From the NCBI GenBank assembly GCA_030628945.1, contig DAOVPY010000005.1, positions 1 through 52,541 of the forward strand: a DNA stretch of 52,541 nucleotides, in the 5' to 3' direction. The notes under the pieces are model-generated. The model saw only the letters and a list, made by a program, of their open reading frames with translations. It had not been told where the DNA came from and ran no database searches. Both the position numbers and the translations under genes were made by a program. Shown one piece after another: positions 2,764 to 34,089 of the stretch (the stretch's first letter is position 1; each line of letters starts with the position of its first letter). Source of the stretch: Candidatus Nealsonbacteria bacterium (GTDB lineage: Bacteria > Patescibacteriota > Minisyncoccia > Minisyncoccales > DAOVPY01).

Positions 2764-2822
2764 ACCCTGTTAAATGCCGCTTTGGCGGCAATTTTGGCAA
2801 AGCCAAAATTATTTAATAGGGT
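2764..2822. repeat. Family A palindromic element (two internal hairpins) in the rny 5' region
   Basis: ACCCTGTTAAA-TGCCGCTTTGGCGGCA-ATTTTGGCAAAGCCAAAATT-ATTTAATAGGGT. Confidence 0.9.
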
Positions 2823-6165: not shown

Positions 6166-6177
6166 AAATGCCTTAAA

Positions 6178-6299
6178 TTTCTAATTTCTAATTTCTAATT
6201 TCTAATCAAATCCCAAATCCCAATTTCTAATGTCTAATTTTTTGGTCATTGGTTATTGGACATTGGGTATTGATTAGGTTAATTAGGTTAATTAGGTTA
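6178..6299. repeat. Compound 7-mer/9-mer tandem tract between rpsA and nusA
   Basis: (TTTCTAA)4 plus variants, TTGGTCA/TTGGTTA/TTGGACA/TTGGGTA, (ATTAGGTTA)3. Confidence 0.9.
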
Positions 6300-7550
6300 A
6301 TTAGACATTTTCATTTTGAGCGCTATTTTGTGGTTTTCCCGGTCAATCTGCAAAATTTGAAATTCATATTTTTTGCCGAGATTCAAGGCCTTTTTCATCT
6401 TTGCCTCGGTTCCAAATTCAGAAATATGAACCAAACCCTGAATTTCGGGAGTAAGCCGGACAAAAGCGCCAAAAGAATTAAATTTGGCCACTACTCCTTT
6501 TATTATATCGCCTTTTTTATATTTTTTTTCAATATGGTCCCAGGGATTCTTTTTTAACGCCCTTAAAGACAAGGAAATTCGGCTGTCGGCGATTTCAATG
6601 ATTTTCGCTTTTACTTTTTCGCCAATTTTTACAACCTTGCCCGGGTCGTCAATCATTCGCCAATCCAATTCAGAAATATGAATAAGCCCTTCCAGGATCG
6701 GAATGGTTGGCATCTCTTGGGCCCCGGCTTTTTTATCAAGCCCTGTGAGGTCTTTTGGGGGCGAAAACCTGATAAAAGCGCCGAAATCCACAATTCCGGT
6801 GATTTCTCCTTCCACTATAACGCCCGGCTTAAGGTTTTTAAATCCTTTTTTAAGCTCAAAGAGCTTCTGGGCTTTTTCTGATAAAATAAGTTTTTCTTGT
6901 TCCTGGTCAACGTCAAATATCTTAACTTCCAATTCTTTGCCAACAAGTTTTTGAAGTTCTCTGGCAATTTTAATCTTGTCTCCTTCGTCTACCCTGGGAT
7001 AATATTCAAAAGAAAGCTGAGAAACCGGCAAAAAACCGGAGATATTGGCTACTTTTGTCAAAAGCCCGCCCTTATTCGCTCCTAAAATTTTAACCGTAAT
7101 CTTCTCGTTCTTTTCTTTCTTTTTTCTCAACGTTTCCCAAGCCAGTTCTCGTTCGGCCTGCTTCACGGAAAGTTCAATATAGCCCTCTTCATTGTCCAAA
7201 TCCAAAACCTTGGCAAAAATCTCTTTCCCCAACTTTAAACTTTTGAGAAAATTTTTTGCTTCGTAAAATTCTCTGCCGTAAATAATTCCCGCGCCAATGG
7301 CTCCCAAATCAATAAAAATAGCCGACCCCTTTATTCCGATAATTCGGCCGCTCACTACATCGCCGAGCTTTGGAAAACCAAACAGATTATTTTGCTTTAC
7401 CCTGTTAAACAATTCCGCCTCTGGCGGAATTCCTTTGCTTTTAGCGGAGGGTTTAACAGGGTGAACCTTGTTAAACAATTCCGCTGCGGGCGGAATTTCT
7501 TTGCTTTTAGCGGAGGATTTAACAGGGTGAACATTTTTTTCCATAAGCAT
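6297..7550 (-). CDS. rpsA: 30S ribosomal protein S1 (four S1 domains) with a repeat-derived N-terminal extension
   Basis: Repeated FGAF...EGLIHISE motifs; two 22-aa repeats at the N-terminus. Confidence 0.9.
   Translation of the reverse strand: MLMEKNVHPVKSSAKSKEIPPAAELFNKVHPVKPSAKSKGIPPEAELFNRVKQNNLFGFPKLGDVVSGRIIGIKGSAIFIDLGAIGAGIIYGREFYEAKNFLKSLKLGKEIFAKVLDLDNEEGYIELSVKQAERELAWETLRKKKEKNEKITVKILGANKGGLLTKVANISGFLPVSQLSFEYYPRVDEGDKIKIARELQKLVGKELEVKIFDVDQEQEKLILSEKAQKLFELKKGFKNLKPGVIVEGEITGIVDFGAFIRFSPPKDLTGLDKKAGAQEMPTIPILEGLIHISELDWRMIDDPGKVVKIGEKVKAKIIEIADSRISLSLRALKKNPWDHIEKKYKKGDIIKGVVAKFNSFGAFVRLTPEIQGLVHISEFGTEAKMKKALNLGKKYEFQILQIDRENHKIALKMKMSN
7399..7528. repeat. Two tandem family A elements (64-bp cores, 66-bp period) in-frame in rpsA
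   Basis: 7399-7462 and 7465-7528; encode VHPVKSSAKSKEIPPAAELFNK and VHPVKPSAKSKGIPPEAELFNR. Confidence 0.92.
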
Positions 7551-7618
7551 AATAACTCTAACCTATCATAAATTGGAAAATTTGGCAATAGTTTTGGTTT
7601 ATGATAGAATGAGAAAAC

Positions 7619-8209
7619 ATGCGTATTACTTTGCATAACCAATCATTATTTCATATCACAACCCAGGATAAAAAAAATGGGTTAGTTAATATTATTATTG
7701 ACCCCTTTGCTCTAAAATCAAAAACCTCTAAATTAGAGGCGGATATTTTATTGCTCAGCCGGCAAAACGAAAAAGCCGTTGACATTAAATCCCTGTCCGG
7801 AAATCCATTCTTAATCAACGGGCCTGGCGAATACGAAATAAAGCAGGTCTTTATCCGGGGAATTTTTGCTAAAGACGAGGAAAACAAAGAAATCGCTATT
7901 TATACAATTGAGGCGGAAGACCTCAAATTATGCTATCTTGGCGGCTTTGACCAGAAAGAATTAATTGCTGAACAACTGGAAAAAATCGGCGATGTTGATA
8001 TTCTTATTATTCCCGTAATGGAAGCAAAAAGAATTATCAATCAGGTTGAGCCAAAAATAGTGATTCCAACACGCTGTAAATCCGCGAAAGAAATGGATAA
8101 ATTTCTAAAAACAATGGGTCTAAAATCAATTGAACCCCAGAACAAATTAGTCATTAAGAAAAAAGACCTGCCGCAAAAAATGGAAATAATTATCCTATCA
8201 GACCGATAA
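7619..8209 (+). CDS. MBL-fold (Lactamase_B_3-like) protein with degenerate metal motifs
   Basis: [33 protein letters not shown]. Confidence 0.75.
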
Positions 8210-16854: not shown

Positions 16855-18933
16855 CAAAACCGGCCAATCTTCAACCATTAAACATTTCTTTTTGTTTTTT
16901 ACTGGTAATTTTTGATAGATTTCTTCGGTAATAAACGGCATAAACGGGTGTAAAAGTTCCAAGGAGCTGAGAAGAACATAAAAAAGAATTTTTTGGGTTT
17001 CTTTGCTATCCTGCTTTTTCGTTTCTTCAATGTAGACATCGCAGAAATCGCGCCAAAAAAAACCATAAAGTTCTCGCGCTACTCGGCCAAATTGAAATTT
17101 TTCCAAATCCTTATCCACTGACTTGATTGTTTTGTCTAACGCCTTCAAAATTTTCTTATCAGCGTTAGTCAAGTTTTGAGTTTTAAGTTGTGGCTTTGCG
17201 CTTTGCGCTTTGCGCTTTGCGCTCTCGGTTTGTCCCAAGACAAACCGAGAGGCGTTCCACACTTTATTGCAAAACTTCTTTCCCATCTTGATATTGTCTT
17301 CCACAAACCGAATATCCTGGCTACCGGTCGCCTGCCAGATTATTCCAAATCGTGTAGCGTCTGTCCCATATTTTTCAATGAGATCTATCGGATCTATGCC
17401 CGTGCCCAATGATTTTGACATTCTTTTTCCTTCCTTATTCAATACCGTGGCGTGGATATAAACATCTTGAAACGGTTCTTTTTTCATAAATTCCGCGCCG
17501 GAAAAAATCATTCTCCCCACCCAAAGATTAATAATATCCCTGGCAGTGCTTAAAACATTAGTAGGATAAAAGGTTTTCAAATCTTTTGTTTTTTTGGGCC
17601 AGCCAAGACAGGCAAACGGCCAAAGCGCTGACGAAAACCAGGTATCCAAAACATCTATCTCGCCTTTTAAGGGAATTCTGTGCCCCCACCAGATTTGGCG
17701 AGAAATACACCAATCCCTCACATTCTTTAACCATTTAAAATAAACTTTTTCCCATTTTTTCGGATGAAATCTTACTTTATTGGTTTTTACCGCTTTAATC
17801 GCTAATTTTGCCAATTTATCCGTTTTCAAAAACCATTGCTGAGAAGGAATTAATTCCAAAGTTTTTCCGCATCTGTAGCATTTAGGAATTTGATGGATAT
17901 AATCTTCAATTTTCTCCATAAAACCGAGATTTTCCAAATCCTGGATTATTTTTTCCCGGGCGTCTGTTACTTTTAATCCCTGATATGTCCGGGGCGCTTG
18001 TTCATTTAATCTGCCTGTTTCGTCTATCACCTGAATACTTTTTAATCCTTGCCGCAAACTGATTTCATAATCAGTCAGGTCGTGGCTGGGAGTCACCTTT
18101 ACCGCGCCTGTCCCGAATTTCGGGTCTACTATCCGGTCGGCAATAATGGGAATTTCTCGGCGCGATAATGGTAAAACAACTTTCTGCCCAACTAATTTTT
18201 TATATCTTTTATCATTTGGATTTACAGCCACCGCTGTATCGCCGAGCATGGTTTCGGGCCGTGTTGTCGCCACCACAATATAGGTTTTAGTTTTCAGGTG
18301 ATAGGTTTTAGATAAAGGATAACGAATATACCACAAATGCCCTTTTTCTTCCTTATATTCTATTTCTAAATCAGACAAGCTTGTTCGGCATCTCACACAC
18401 CAGTTAACCACTCTCTTCCCTCTATAAATCCAGTGTTTTTTGTAATAATATAAAAATGCCTTTTTTACCGCTTCTGTATATTCTTTGTCTAAAGTAAATC
18501 TGGTTCTTGACCAATCACAGGAACTTCCCATTTTTTTAAGCTGGTCCAGGATAATATTTCCGTATTTTTCTTTCCATTCCCAAATTTTTTCAATAAATTT
18601 TTCCCTGCCAAGGTCAAAACGGGTCAAGCCCTGTTTTTTTAGTTCTTTTTCAACGACATATTGAGCCACGATTCCGGCGTGGTCAATACCCGGAACCAAA
18701 AGCGTTTTGTATCCCTGAAGCCGTTTCCAGCGAATTAAAATGTCCTGAATTGTGGCGTTTAAGGCGTGCCCCATATGAAGCGCGCCTGTAATATTGGGAA
18801 GGGGAATAACAATACAATAGGGTTTTTTATGCCGTTTTGGAAGTTTATCAGGATTAAAATAACCGCTTTTTTCCCAAAAGCGATAAATTCTGTTTTCAAC
18901 TTGTTTTGGATTGTAAGTTTTAGATAATTCCAT
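16846..18933 (-). CDS. valS: Valine--tRNA ligase, lacking the C-terminal coiled coil
   Basis: HMGH, ATTRPETMLGD, DWCISRQIWWGH, DTWFSSALWP, RMSKS. Confidence 0.97.
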   Translation of the reverse strand: MELSKTYNPKQVENRIYRFWEKSGYFNPDKLPKRHKKPYCIVIPLPNITGALHMGHALNATIQDILIRWKRLQGYKTLLVPGIDHAGIVAQYVVEKELKKQGLTRFDLGREKFIEKIWEWKEKYGNIILDQLKKMGSSCDWSRTRFTLDKEYTEAVKKAFLYYYKKHWIYRGKRVVNWCVRCRTSLSDLEIEYKEEKGHLWYIRYPLSKTYHLKTKTYIVVATTRPETMLGDTAVAVNPNDKRYKKLVGQKVVLPLSRREIPIIADRIVDPKFGTGAVKVTPSHDLTDYEISLRQGLKSIQVIDETGRLNEQAPRTYQGLKVTDAREKIIQDLENLGFMEKIEDYIHQIPKCYRCGKTLELIPSQQWFLKTDKLAKLAIKAVKTNKVRFHPKKWEKVYFKWLKNVRDWCISRQIWWGHRIPLKGEIDVLDTWFSSALWPFACLGWPKKTKDLKTFYPTNVLSTARDIINLWVGRMIFSGAEFMKKEPFQDVYIHATVLNKEGKRMSKSLGTGIDPIDLIEKYGTDATRFGIIWQATGSQDIRFVEDNIKMGKKFCNKVWNASRFVLGQTESAKRKAQSAKPQLKTQNLTNADKKILKALDKTIKSVDKDLEKFQFGRVARELYGFFWRDFCDVYIEETKKQDSKETQKILFYVLLSSLELLHPFMPFITEEIYQKLPVKNKKKCLMVEDWPVLKN

Positions 18934-20020
18934 CTATTCTTAGATTAGCATCAACTTCAATATCTTTCCAGTTTTTAATTTTTTTGCGATGAAAACAAGC
19001 CGTAACGCCGACCATGGCGGCGTTATCAGTGCAAAACCTGGAATAAGGAATCAAAAATAAGGAATCAGGAATTTCTTTTTTAATTCTTTGCTGAAATTGC
19101 TTTTGCAATTCCTTGTTTGCGGTAACGCCACCGCCAAGGATAATTGTCCTCGCCCCATAATCTCGGGCGGCTTTTATGGTTTTTTTAAGCAAAACATCAA
19201 TTACTGCCTGTTGGATTTCAACGCACATCTCCCGAATATATTTTATATTTTTCGCTTTTCGCTTTTCGCTTTTCACTTTATACAAGACCGCTGTTTTCAG
19301 CCCTGAAAAACTAAAATCATAGTCCTTGGAATACATCATAGGTCTGGGAAGCTTTGCCCTGTTAAATAATTTCGCCTTTGGCGAAATTGCCGCAAAGCGG
19401 CATTTAACAGGGTGAATTTGAAATTTCCATTGCCGAGCCTGCTCGGCAATGGCCGGTCCGCCGGGGTATTCTAATCCTAAAATCCGGGCCGCCTTGTCCA
19501 GACACTCGCCCGCGGCGTCATCCCGGGTTTCGCCTAAAATTTTGTATTTGCCAATCCCTCGCATTAAAATCAATTGCGTGTGCCCGCCAGAAACAACCAA
19601 ACAAACCGCTGGAAATAAATAGTTTGTAGTTTGTAGTTTGTAGTTTGTAGTTAAAAAATTAACGAGGATATGCGCCTCAATGTGATTTACTGGAATTATT
19701 GGCAAATTTCTTTGACGAGATAATTTTTTGGCGAAATTTACCCCTGTCCACAAACACGGCTCCAATCCGGGACCATTGGTTACAGCAATCGCGTCAATTT
19801 TGGGATTCCGGGCTTGTTTTAGCGCTTTCTTGAAAACAATCGGCAGATTTTTCTGATGTTCTCTTTTTGCCAAAAAAGGATAAATCCCTCCGTATTTAGC
19901 ATGAAGTTTTACCTGCGAAGAAATCACATTCGCTAAAATTCTAAAATTTAACTTCTTATCTCTCTCAACCACGGCAACGCAGGTATCATCGCATGATGTT
20001 TCAATAGCTAGAATTTTCAT
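18920..20020 (-). CDS. tsaD: tRNA N6-adenosine threonylcarbamoyltransferase TsaD
   Basis: ILAIETSCDD, NHIEAH, VSGGHT, DDAAGE, FSFSGLKT, TDNAAM. Confidence 0.97.
   Translation of the reverse strand: MKILAIETSCDDTCVAVVERDKKLNFRILANVISSQVKLHAKYGGIYPFLAKREHQKNLPIVFKKALKQARNPKIDAIAVTNGPGLEPCLWTGVNFAKKLSRQRNLPIIPVNHIEAHILVNFLTTNYKLQTTNYLFPAVCLVVSGGHTQLILMRGIGKYKILGETRDDAAGECLDKAARILGLEYPGGPAIAEQARQWKFQIHPVKCRFAAISPKAKLFNRAKLPRPMMYSKDYDFSFSGLKTAVLYKVKSEKRKAKNIKYIREMCVEIQQAVIDVLLKKTIKAARDYGARTIILGGGVTANKELQKQFQQRIKKEIPDSLFLIPYSRFCTDNAAMVGVTACFHRKKIKNWKDIEVDANLRIDGII
19356..19413. repeat. Family A element in-frame in tsaD
   Basis: Encodes (I)HPVKCRFAAISPKAKLFNR(A) just before LPRPM. Confidence 0.92.
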
Positions 20021-20115
20021 TGCTGTCATTTTACCATTTAAGTTGCTTTTCTTCAATTTTTCCTCTATAATAACAAATAATCAACGATTAGTGATTAATG
20101 ATAAATGATTATTTT

Positions 20116-32074: not shown

Positions 32075-33576
32075 AGTTCTCCTTTTTTCCTTTCCTCGGT
32101 ATAAAACGCTAAAATATCTCCTTTCTCAATTCTGCCCGAGCCCTCATAAAGTATGCCAACCTCATTCCCTTTGCCTGCTTTTTCTATGTCTTTTTTATTC
32201 TTCTGAAGATGAACAAGTTTGCCGGTTCCGATTTTCTCTTCCTCGCGGAAAACTTCAATTTTAACTCCCTTTTTCACCTCTCCCTCAACAATCCTCCCCC
32301 CGACAATTTGACGATTCTTTTCGGTCTTGAAAACTATTAAAATTTTAAGCTTGCCTAAATCAATCCTGACCTTAGTTGGTTCAATCTTTTTTTCCATGAG
32401 CTGACGAACTGCCTGAACAATCTCATAAATGACTTCAAACGTCCTTACTCCTATATTCTCCCTTTCAATCAATCTTGAGGCGATATAATTCGTTTTTACC
32501 CGAAAACCCAAAATCCGGGCTTTTGCCGATTTTGCCAGTTTAATATCGCTCTCATTAATCTCGCCGACCTCGCTTTTCAAAATTCTTAAAACAACCCTCT
32601 CTTGAGGCAGTCCCTTAAGAACTTGTCTAATCGCCTCCAAAGAACCGGAAACATCTGCTTTCAAAATTAAATTTAGCGCTGTCTTGCCCTCCTCCACTAA
32701 TAATACGTCTCTCTTTTCCATCTTGCTTGTTTTTTTAAAAACATATCTCTCGGCTGATACAATGTCCGGCTGAATTTTAAATTCCTCGCCAACGCAAGGA
32801 GCATTTTCAAAACCAATAACAATTATCGGCTGAGAAGGCAGGGCCTGTTTTAAAGATTTCCCTTGAAAATCCTCTAAGATTTTAATCTTGCCAAAAGTAG
32901 AAACAGTGGCAATAATATCTCCCAGCCTCAATATTCCATCTCGTAAAAGCAGGGTGGCTGTTGGCCCCCGTTGACTGTCCAAATAGGCCTCAATCACCGC
33001 TCCTTCGCCCTTCTTGGTTAAATCTCCGTGAAGACCTTCAATCTCCGCCACTAACAAGATAAGTCCTAAAAGCTCTGAAATTCCTTTTTTGGTTTTGGCT
33101 GAAGTCTCTATCGCGGGAATTTTCCCTCCCATTGATTCAACAACTACATCCTGCTTGAATAATTCTCTTTTAACTTTTTCAGGGTCAGCTTCTGGTTTGT
33201 CTATTTTATTTATAGCGACAATCATGGGAATGCCGGATTTTTTGATATGAATAATGGATTCTTTGGTTTGGGGCTTTATTCCTTCTTCAGCCGCTACCAC
33301 TAAAATCGCTATATCGGCCGCTTTTGCTCCCCGGTAGCGCATTATTGAAAATGCTTCATGCCCGGGCGTGTCAATAAAAGTAATTTTCTTGCCTTCATGC
33401 TCAACTTCATAAGCTCCAATGTGCTGTGTAATGCCGCCTGATTCTTTCGCGGTAATCTTAAAATCTTTAACCGCCTCTAAAATAGAAGATTTGCCGTGGT
33501 CAACATGCCCTAAAACCACCACGACAGGGGGACGTGACTGGATATTTTTTGTTTGTTTTACGGTTTCTTGGGGCAT
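32071..33576 (-). CDS. infB: Translation initiation factor IF-2 (short form)
   Basis: RPPVVVVLGHVDHGKS, GGITQHIGAY, DTPGHEAF. Confidence 0.97.
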   Translation of the reverse strand: MPQETVKQTKNIQSRPPVVVVLGHVDHGKSSILEAVKDFKITAKESGGITQHIGAYEVEHEGKKITFIDTPGHEAFSIMRYRGAKAADIAILVVAAEEGIKPQTKESIIHIKKSGIPMIVAINKIDKPEADPEKVKRELFKQDVVVESMGGKIPAIETSAKTKKGISELLGLILLVAEIEGLHGDLTKKGEGAVIEAYLDSQRGPTATLLLRDGILRLGDIIATVSTFGKIKILEDFQGKSLKQALPSQPIIVIGFENAPCVGEEFKIQPDIVSAERYVFKKTSKMEKRDVLLVEEGKTALNLILKADVSGSLEAIRQVLKGLPQERVVLRILKSEVGEINESDIKLAKSAKARILGFRVKTNYIASRLIERENIGVRTFEVIYEIVQAVRQLMEKKIEPTKVRIDLGKLKILIVFKTEKNRQIVGGRIVEGEVKKGVKIEVFREEEKIGTGKLVHLQKNKKDIEKAGKGNEVGILYEGSGRIEKGDILAFYTEERKKGEL

Positions 33577-33637
33577 AATAAGTTTTTTATCTTACAAATT
33601 TTTAATTTTTAATTTTTAATTTTTAAAAATTTAGAAT

Positions 33638-34000
33638 TTAAGCCCGCAGGGCTTTAGATATCGCTTCTTTCTCTTCCTCTGACAGCGAATGCTGGGAAAG
33701 GCCGTTTTTTACAACTTTGGTATAGGTTCTGTTCATTTCCCTGCTGTAATAACTGGTAAGGACAAAACCATTATTGCGAGCGTCAAGCAAAGCAATGCAA
33801 AAACTCTGGTCGCCTCCAACCTCTTTAAAAGGATTAAATCTAACAATGCCTATTTTTTGCAAAAAGGACTGGCTTTCTTTCTTAAAATCCTCTAAATCCT
33901 TTTTTATCTTCTGATTGTCTTTATCCAGTCGTTCTAAAAATTCCAAAATTTCTTTTTGGTTTTTGGGCTGGTTTTTGTTTTTTTTGAAAAATTTGAACAT
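33638..34000 (-). CDS. DUF4446-like protein
   Basis: QKIGIVRFNPFKEVGGDQSF...LSEEEKEAI. Confidence 0.8.
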   Translation of the reverse strand: MFKFFKKNKNQPKNQKEILEFLERLDKDNQKIKKDLEDFKKESQSFLQKIGIVRFNPFKEVGGDQSFCIALLDARNNGFVLTSYYSREMNRTYTKVVKNGLSQHSLSEEEKEAISKALRA

Positions 34001-34002
34001 AG

Positions 34003-34089
34003 CGGCGGGAGAAGGATTCGAACCCTCGATGCCCTTTCAAGCATAGCGGTTTTCGAAACCGCCCCGTTCGTCCACTCCGGCATCCCGCC
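34003..34089 (-). tRNA. tRNA-Ser(CGA)
   Basis: GCGGT-TTCGAAA-ACCGC, long variable arm, G73. Confidence 0.95.

Follow-up and report, generated by a model that had tools for sequence, protein, structure and literature searches.

What is already known of palindromic DNA that inserts itself, in frame, into genes? In the passages of PMC10969869 that concern them, Rickettsia palindromic elements (RPEs) are repeats of about 150 bp that often lie in frame in unrelated genes of Rickettsia. We have analyzed a stretch of DNA of 52,541 nucleotides (nt), hereafter the window, which comprises positions 1 to 52,541 of the forward strand of contig DAOVPY010000005.1 (assembly GCA_030628945.1) from a Candidatus Nealsonbacteria bacterium, a member of the candidate phyla radiation (CPR), or Patescibacteria. 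In this window rpsA, the gene of ribosomal protein bS1 (S1 below), carries two adjacent units of a dispersed palindrome between its start codon and its first S1 domain.

RPEs are the closest known system. As RPEs are described in the same passages of PMC10969869, the two systems are alike in that dispersed palindromes lie in frame in unrelated genes, where they add a conserved peptide and leave the host protein intact. They differ in that the cores studied here are 44-68 nt long, shorter by a factor of two to three, fold into a three-way (Y) junction and reside in a Patescibacteria host, whereas RPEs are repeats of about 150 bp of Rickettsia. The elements studied here also have invariant CCCTGTTAAA ends that are found in many phyla, a feature that sets them apart from RPEs by description only. 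Similarly, the elements resemble repetitive extragenic palindromic (REP) sequences and REPINs in being short hairpin repeats without target-site duplication; however, REPs are extragenic, whereas 11 of the 23 copies in this genome lie in open reading frames (ORFs). Likewise, the elements share with miniature inverted-repeat transposable elements a small size, the lack of coding capacity, terminal inverted repeats and many copies, but they generate no target-site duplication, and their interior arms are not conserved in sequence but change in a compensatory manner. Among the papers listed on CPR palindromic elements, on RAYT/REPIN systems (none of which dealt with Patescibacteria) and on miniature inverted repeats in Parcubacteria (one unrelated paper), none describes the family. 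Both 10-nt ends, used as literature text queries, yielded no description either among the matches listed, those examined being primers or a plasmid sequence table. The family thus seems to be undescribed in print.

We propose that a miniature, non-coding, Y-shaped palindrome landed in rpsA between codon 6 and the KQNN segment, in front of S1 domain 1, and that two such units of 66 nt, each a whole number of codons and stop-free in the xHPVK...LFNR frame, now stand there side by side. Translation from the ancestral ATG would then produce an S1 protein with a 44-residue extension in front of the conserved segment, the ribosome melting the element hairpins during early elongation. The insert would be tolerated selfish DNA, RPE-like and presumably neutral, and no device of the S1 gene. 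We consider this explanation as a whole (in-frame selfish palindromes in rpsA, translated and tolerated) to be the likely one.

Two palindromic units within the rpsA coding sequence

The features at the start of rpsA are as follows.

6297..7550, minus strand: rpsA ORF (ribosomal protein bS1), 417 amino acids (aa), four S1 domains, assigned by Pfam and orthology
7465..7530, minus strand: start-proximal 66-nt unit, core 7466-7527, encoding VHPVKSSAKSKEIPPAAELFNK; per nucleotide the least stable of the 23 genomic copies
7399..7464, minus strand: second 66-nt unit, core 7400-7461, encoding VHPVKPSAKSKGIPPEAELFNR
7401..7532, minus strand: codons 7-50, the 44 element-encoded residues (isoelectric point 9.9, 7 Pro, 8 Lys/Arg)
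7371..7400, minus strand: codons 51-60, VKQNNLFGFP, the rest of the ancestral N-terminal segment, conserved in orthologues

The 417-aa ORF contains four stretches that match the Pfam S1 family (PF00575, E 1e-43), and its orthology is clear from a match in 41 of 41 genomes, its own included (best non-self E 3.5e-149). The E. coli S1 chain aligns to it with E 1e-56, query residue 61 corresponding to E. coli residue 19. From its N-terminus, the translation of 6297..7550 reads MLMEKN, VHPVKSSAKSKEIPPAAELFNK, VHPVKPSAKSKGIPPEAELFNR and VKQNNLFGFPKLGDVVSG.

Tandem Repeats Finder reports, for 7399-7532, a period of 66 with 2.0 copies, 91% matches, no indels and a score of 226. A repeat search independently pairs 7399-7464 with 7465-7530 at 91% identity; the units differ at 6 of 66 nt, which changes 4 amino acids. 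Each unit is built of a 62-nt core plus 4 nt, and the core consists of CCCTGTTAAA, two successive GC hairpins and TTTAACAGGG. A search with 20 nt of the unit, allowing up to 3 mismatches, found 4 matches in the window, compared with 0.00 expected from 100 shuffles. The 171-nt repeat stretch folds with -58.5 kcal/mol (z -5.96), a value that 0 of 200 shuffles reach, and the single units fold independently with -18.8 (z -4.1) and -33.0 kcal/mol (z -6.7). An earlier reading of the letters alone (the sequence-only reading) had described two tandem units with an exact 66-bp period, placed in frame after the start codon, and strong mRNA structure just downstream of that start; the period and frame agree between Tandem Repeats Finder and the ORF translation, and the folding energies bear out the structure. 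Two terminator-like matches on the plus strand consist of the element's own hairpin followed by T-rich sequence, and we give them no weight.

How did the tandem arise? Scored relative to the third 62-nt copy, which lies in a glycosyltransferase gene, two G-to-A changes are common to both rpsA units and break one hairpin in the mRNA sense. Because both units share these changes, local duplication of one inserted unit is favoured. Tandems of two different elements occur elsewhere, at 158685 and 158742 of this genome's contig C17 and in a Doudnabacteria genome, so adjacent insertion in rpsA is also possible. The lower stability of the start-proximal unit is consistent with relaxed decay and also with selection against structure close to the start.

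Comparison with orthologues points to an insertion inside the ancestral coding sequence. In the only genome of the same family (G001), S1 begins MIVMEKIITKQNNILVLPKIGEVV (MIVMEK-IIT-KQNN), where the window has MLMEKN, 44 aa and then VKQNN. The rpsA DNA of G001 has TTATGGAAAAAA at the start and TTTATGATAG upstream in common with the window; these motifs were picked by eye, the automatic DNA alignment being poor upstream of the insert. The closest protein in a large database (P0002) has MEILKQNNL at its N-terminus, and the N-terminal consensus of 40 orthologues is MKxLLEKNNLLKPPK. Without its 44 residues, the window's S1 would begin MEKN-VKQNNLF and would equal the orthologues in length. The alignment with orthologues that the sequence-only reading had suggested thus finds the insert absent from 40 relatives and the ancestral start conserved with G001: the S1 match begins at query residue 40 or later in 40 of 40 relatives. 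Among the matches listed, the PVK...FN[RK] motif occurs in 1 of 120 S1 homologues, the window's own protein, and the insert is in none of the other 119; the distance from the N-terminus to GTGIIYG is 85 residues here, compared with a median of 39 in the 109 motif-bearing sequences among those matches. When S1 residues 1-56 were searched against 5.8 billion clustered proteins, the window's own protein alone was recovered (2 candidates), and tblastn of S1 against the 125 cross-phylum element loci gave no match at 1e-3. Separately, the first 54 residues gave 1 match (E 7e-6) against 1.84 billion representatives, the ORF of a different repeat, which we read as unrelated. As judged from these alignments, the element is inserted after the ancestral start codon, within the ancestral coding sequence; since the insert is 132 nt, or 2 x 66, the ancestral ATG stays in frame with the S1 domains.

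The position of the insert may bear on how S1 is held to the ribosome. According to the part of PMC4288201 that treats this contact, E. coli S1 is anchored to S2 by its N-terminal segment, through the stacking of Phe5 and Phe9. Since query residue 61 corresponds to E. coli residue 19, the insert lies within the counterpart of this S2-anchoring segment. It splits that counterpart, leaving VKQNNLFGFP beside domain 1 and MLMEKN 44 residues away. Unlike E. coli S1, the orthologues considered here have leucines in their consensus, MKxLLEKNNLLKPPK, and not two phenylalanines.

An AlphaFold2 model of S1, computed with a 40-sequence alignment as input, has a predicted local distance difference test score (pLDDT) below 50 at residues 1-55 and of about 90 from residue 61 over the S1 domains, which are beta-barrels at that confidence. 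A helix is predicted with low confidence at residues 44-53, spanning the element end and the first host residues. The 44-residue extension is basic, proline-rich and, to go by the model, probably disordered. With regard to the remainder of the protein, we note that S1 domain 3 contains about 24 extra residues (FSPPKDLTGLDKKAGAQEMPTIPI) relative to E. coli S1, at window 6690-6770 (residues ~262-285). This segment shows a pLDDT dip at 278-280 and lies outside the palindrome family.

The element family in this genome and its relatives

The sequence-only reading had assigned both units to a repeat family (family A), and the assignment holds: allowing one mismatch per end, we count 23 dispersed family copies in this genome (825 kb, 17 contigs), with cores of 44-68 nt. 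Beyond rpsA, the window contains the following copies.

2765..2821, no strand assigned: 57-nt core (core plus 4 nt not a multiple of 3), outside ORFs of at least 100 aa
11707..11762, no strand assigned: intergenic family copy, found by repeat search
19357..19412, minus strand: 56-nt core in frame in tsaD (ORF 18920-20056)

Single-strand folding of copies from this genome and its relatives gives an outer stem with exactly two hairpins in 30 of 36 cases. The hairpin arms vary in sequence from copy to copy and keep their complementarity through compensatory changes.

Eleven of the 23 copies lie inside ORFs of at least 100 aa; all are in the PVK...FNR frame, and all have a core plus 4 nt divisible by 3. 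The hosts besides rpsA are metG, a GT1 glycosyltransferase, tsaD, ligA, a membrane glycosyltransferase, ftsZ, gatA, rplW and rpoD, and rpsI contains a decayed family copy. In all four hosts tested (TsaD, GatA, LigA and MetRS), the parts before and after the element match solved structures in a single frame. For example, the element of TsaD forms a clean additional segment that interrupts the alignment to PDB 6n9a_D at query 209-234; in GatA, LigA and MetRS, it lies in a variable linker with a net gain of 4-8 residues. Likewise, 5 of 13 copies in relatives lie in genes, namely pgk, rpoC, a phosphoenolpyruvate-utilising enzyme, argS and a glycosyltransferase. One argS (locus L053, G003:C22) contains a full in-frame element and, about 60 codons downstream, a remnant-like segment (...AAFNKVN).

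Copies are under-represented in ORFs, which hold 48% of them (11/23) and cover 89% of the bases (binomial p 9e-7). Where a copy of the type with stops in the reverse direction does lie in an ORF, it has the open orientation in 7 of 7 cases (p 0.008). Signs of purifying selection are visible in these counts, and neither constraint would be expected of elements that are skipped or cut out.

Start codon choice and competing explanations

Where does translation of S1 begin? Four features are relevant.

7542..7550, minus strand: ATG CTT ATG, two candidate starts
7565..7570, minus strand: TATGAT, a -10-like hexamer within the TTTATGATAG motif common to the upstream region of the relative's rpsA
7476-7478, minus strand: in-frame TTG, codon 25, twin of the next
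7410..7412, minus strand: rival start, the TTG of codon 47, in frame and within the 3' hairpin arm of the second unit

The second ATG (7542-7544) and the GAA AAA that follows it are conserved at the DNA level with G001. There is no in-frame ATG from codon 3 to at least codon 100, in agreement with the sequence-only reading, which had found none downstream of the repeats and ahead of the first S1 domain; near-start codons that lie in frame are TTG 25 and TTG 47 (both within the repeats), CTG 56 and GTG 66. That reading had also raised the possibility of a non-ATG start downstream of 7399. No such codon lies between the repeats and KQNN; each unit does contain an in-frame TTG, but a 9-bp GC hairpin encloses it. 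Around the ATGs, by comparison, 43 nt are A/U-rich and unstructured (-2.7 kcal/mol, z -0.07), and the unpaired probability of the start region is 0.37/0.58 with the insert versus 0.36/0.52 without it. Because the elements fold on themselves, the AU-rich start region is left free.

Shine-Dalgarno (SD) tetramers (GGAG, GAGG or AGGA) are found upstream of 11% of 488 long ORFs versus 9% of control positions, and the presumed 16S 3' end (contig C4, ~311-350) reads ...GGATCATATAATTT, without the CCTCC anti-SD core. From these sequences, the genome appears to do without SD pairing. A/T-rich sequence precedes its starts. In a scan of 485 ORFs of at least 200 aa for hexamers with at least 5 of 6 matches to TATAAT, the hexamer ended exactly at -7 in 46 ORFs and at -9 in 26, with a background of about 5, a pattern that suggests many leaderless mRNAs. 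The TATGAT at 7565..7570 is a candidate promoter that would leave a leader of about 8 nt. The retained ATG, the lack of SD use, the buried TTG codons and the read-through of the family elsewhere all argue for translation of the insert, as does the selection seen on the location and orientation of the copies. We infer that the 44 residues are made from the upstream ATG, which is the best-supported reading and a probable one, and the expectation of the sequence-only reading that some 44 aa are translated is upheld as an inference by start-codon context and family read-through.

A number of observations weigh against this view. Other frames are open across the units (ORFs 7397..7642, minus strand, and 7392..7571, plus strand), so an open frame alone is weak evidence for translation. 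The 6 nt and 4 amino-acid differences between the units do not point to selection on the peptide, just as would be seen in an untranslated leader, and S1 would have the usual length of its orthologues if it began at codon 47. A structure of -58.5 kcal/mol would be costly so near the start of a gene whose expression should be high. Finally, one would expect the splitting of the S2-anchor counterpart to be harmful.

Several of these points are accommodated by an alternative in which the elements lie in the 5' leader and translation starts at TTG 47, or else at TTG 25, CTG 56 or GTG 66, the frame from the upstream ATG through the elements being a leftover that has not yet decayed. A start at TTG 47 would yield M-FNRVKQNNLF..., of about orthologue length; the copy differences are mostly non-synonymous; and the PVK...FNR frame, open even in intergenic copies, is intrinsically stop-free and needs no selection to stay so. 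However, TTG 47 and a GAGG-like motif upstream of it are locked in the 9-bp GC hairpin, in a genome without an SD signal and with a presumed 16S 3' end that lacks CCTCC. Moreover, TTG 47 has neither A/T-rich upstream sequence nor a -10 box ending at -7, whereas ATG GAA AAA is conserved with G001, and a start at CTG 56 or GTG 66 would remove part of the conserved segment or of domain 1's first strand. We regard a start within or beyond the repeats as unlikely, although it is the strongest of the alternatives.

Could the insert instead be adaptive, either as an mRNA structure that tunes or autoregulates S1 synthesis or as a peptide tail that alters S2 docking or mRNA recruitment without SD pairing? 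Its position is special, right after the start codon and within the counterpart of the S2 anchor; both copies are kept in three samples; and the low-confidence helix at 44-53 joins the C-terminal part of the element to host residues. Yet the same element occurs in unrelated genes and in intergenic DNA, and it is absent from the 119 other S1 orthologues among the matches listed and from S1 of the 40 relatives. Moreover, the start-proximal copy is the most decayed of 23, and the two peptides are alike only by common descent. An adaptive role is therefore rather improbable.

A compact, stable structure with invariant ends might also be excised from the RNA or bypassed by the ribosome, so that the 44 residues would be absent from S1. 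Bypassed inserts in coding genes are reportedly found in phage T4 gene 60 and as the 'byps' of yeast mitochondria. If the units were skipped, however, stops and length would not matter, yet 11 of 11 in-ORF copies have a core plus 4 nt divisible by 3 and are stop-free in the host frame, and the seven reverse-stop-type copies keep the open orientation noted above. In addition, the window has no Rfam 15 match beyond tRNAs at the gathering score, the best hit in 7300-7650 (E 0.18) being far below it. Skipping is accordingly very improbable. Least credible of all is that an assembler duplicated one unit, as may happen at tandem repeats, an alternative raised by the sequence-only reading and excluded to the extent that contigs allow. 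One cold-seep study supplies contigs from three runs (two of them possibly the source of this genome); these contigs, which are blind to rare one-copy variants, cover 7000-7900, 7005-7900 and 7010-7726 with both copies, 0 differences and no joints; the 6 differences are spread so that no identical run exceeds about 20 nt and 31-mers resolve the units; and database records contain the same 417-aa protein from 2 contigs, one of them 316 kb long.

We therefore return to the proposal that tolerated, in-frame palindromes are translated as part of S1. If the 44 residues are indeed made, selfish DNA has remodelled the N-terminus of the protein that brings mRNA to the ribosome, in a bacterium that seemingly lacks SD pairing and may depend on S1 all the more. 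The locus would add to the evidence that ultra-small, gene-dense genomes tolerate mobile palindromes in essential genes, previously a Rickettsia curiosity. With respect to annotation, palindromes of this kind may be the origin of odd extensions and insertions in CPR proteins; with respect to protein evolution, such elements would be a ready source of linkers and tails.

Distribution, mobility and neighbouring sequence

Exact family ends are present in 6 of 41 genomes of this order. A species-level genome collection contains at least 125 stretches with these ends, in many Patescibacteria classes, WOR-3, Omnitrophota, Desulfobacterales, Bacteroidales and others; for the study of mobile DNA, this is a seemingly undescribed family with identical ends across phyla. 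Among 128 copies in the stretches listed, 13 lie in frames open for at least 40 codons on both sides, and 76 have a core plus 4 nt divisible by 3. The 62-nt copies of WOR-3 and Omnitrophota are identical to the S1 units at no more than 37 of 62 positions, and only the ends are shared. Since interiors differ between lineages in this way, these 62-nt copies are not a recent shared subfamily.

What moves the element? The 10-nt invariant ends are extended by TTYA on both sides into terminal inverted repeats of 14 nt, TTYACCCTGTTAAA, and copies are most often flanked by TTCA at one end and TAAA at the other. The target site is not duplicated: 10 of 127 copies have flanking direct repeats of 2 nt versus about 11 expected, repeats of 3-4 nt are few, and the figure in this genome is 4 of 17. 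The lack of a target duplication together with a conserved flanking tetranucleotide fits single-strand HUH transposition of the IS200/IS605 kind. Within the order, 6 of 6 genomes with the element and 15 of 35 without it have genes matching Pfam Y1_Tnp (IS200/RAYT-type; Fisher p 0.02, kin genomes not being independent), as do 5 of 5 tested genomes of other groups. In contrast to REP/RAYT systems, however, no family copy is found at any of 24 Y1 loci (flanks up to ~1.5 kb, less at contig ends), and the 15 element-free relatives have Y1 genes all the same. TnpB-type nucleases (PF07282) occur in none of 3 element-bearing genomes, and a search for a parent insertion sequence with the same ends, limited to the Y1_Tnp and TnpB-type families and not exhaustive, found none. 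The link between Y1 (RAYT-like) transposases and element movement is thus a lead only. Integron attC sites, whose two core motifs are in the opposite order, were set aside.

This genome encodes three Y1 proteins itself, at C12 13887-14465, C5 29246-30058 and C12 33252-33995. A different palindrome does show the classic RAYT layout here. A RAYT-like Y1 gene on contig C12 (33252-33995), directly downstream of ligA, is flanked by three copies (33100-34030) of a palindrome composed of GTTTAAGGT, AGA or TCT, and ACCTTAAAC.

We may go one step further and imagine a cross-phylum superfamily of 50-70-nt Y-shaped elements, coding-neutral by evolution, moved as single-stranded DNA by a RAYT-like Y1 transposase to sites next to a TTCA-type tetranucleotide without duplication, one of which has rebuilt the S1 anchor of an SD-free organism. 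We offer this larger picture tentatively and think it doubtful in its entirety. Were it true, elements made of whole codons that encode a soft, basic, stop-free peptide could colonise essential genes in tiny, gene-dense genomes.

Elsewhere in Patescibacteria, one 6.9-kb contig carries two family copies (L060 and L061) that encode an identical peptide, lie in opposite orientation about 5.5 kb apart and each sit in a reading frame that stays open for over 130 codons to either side. A Y1_Tnp fragment (6559-6675) is on the contig numbered 63 of that genome, probably the same contig.

Finally, we note two features that adjoin rpsA. At window 6176-6304, four abutting, perfect short tandem arrays, with units AATTTCT, CAAATCC, a TTGGTCA-like sequence and ATTAGGTTA, reach and cross the rpsA stop codon, and many further 7-nt arrays are scattered across the window. 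On the plus strand, a promoter-like site at 7582-7610 (TTGGCA, 17 nt, TAGAAT, with TG in front) sits upstream of a divergent gene for a metallo-beta-lactamase (MBL)-fold hydrolase at 7619-8209.

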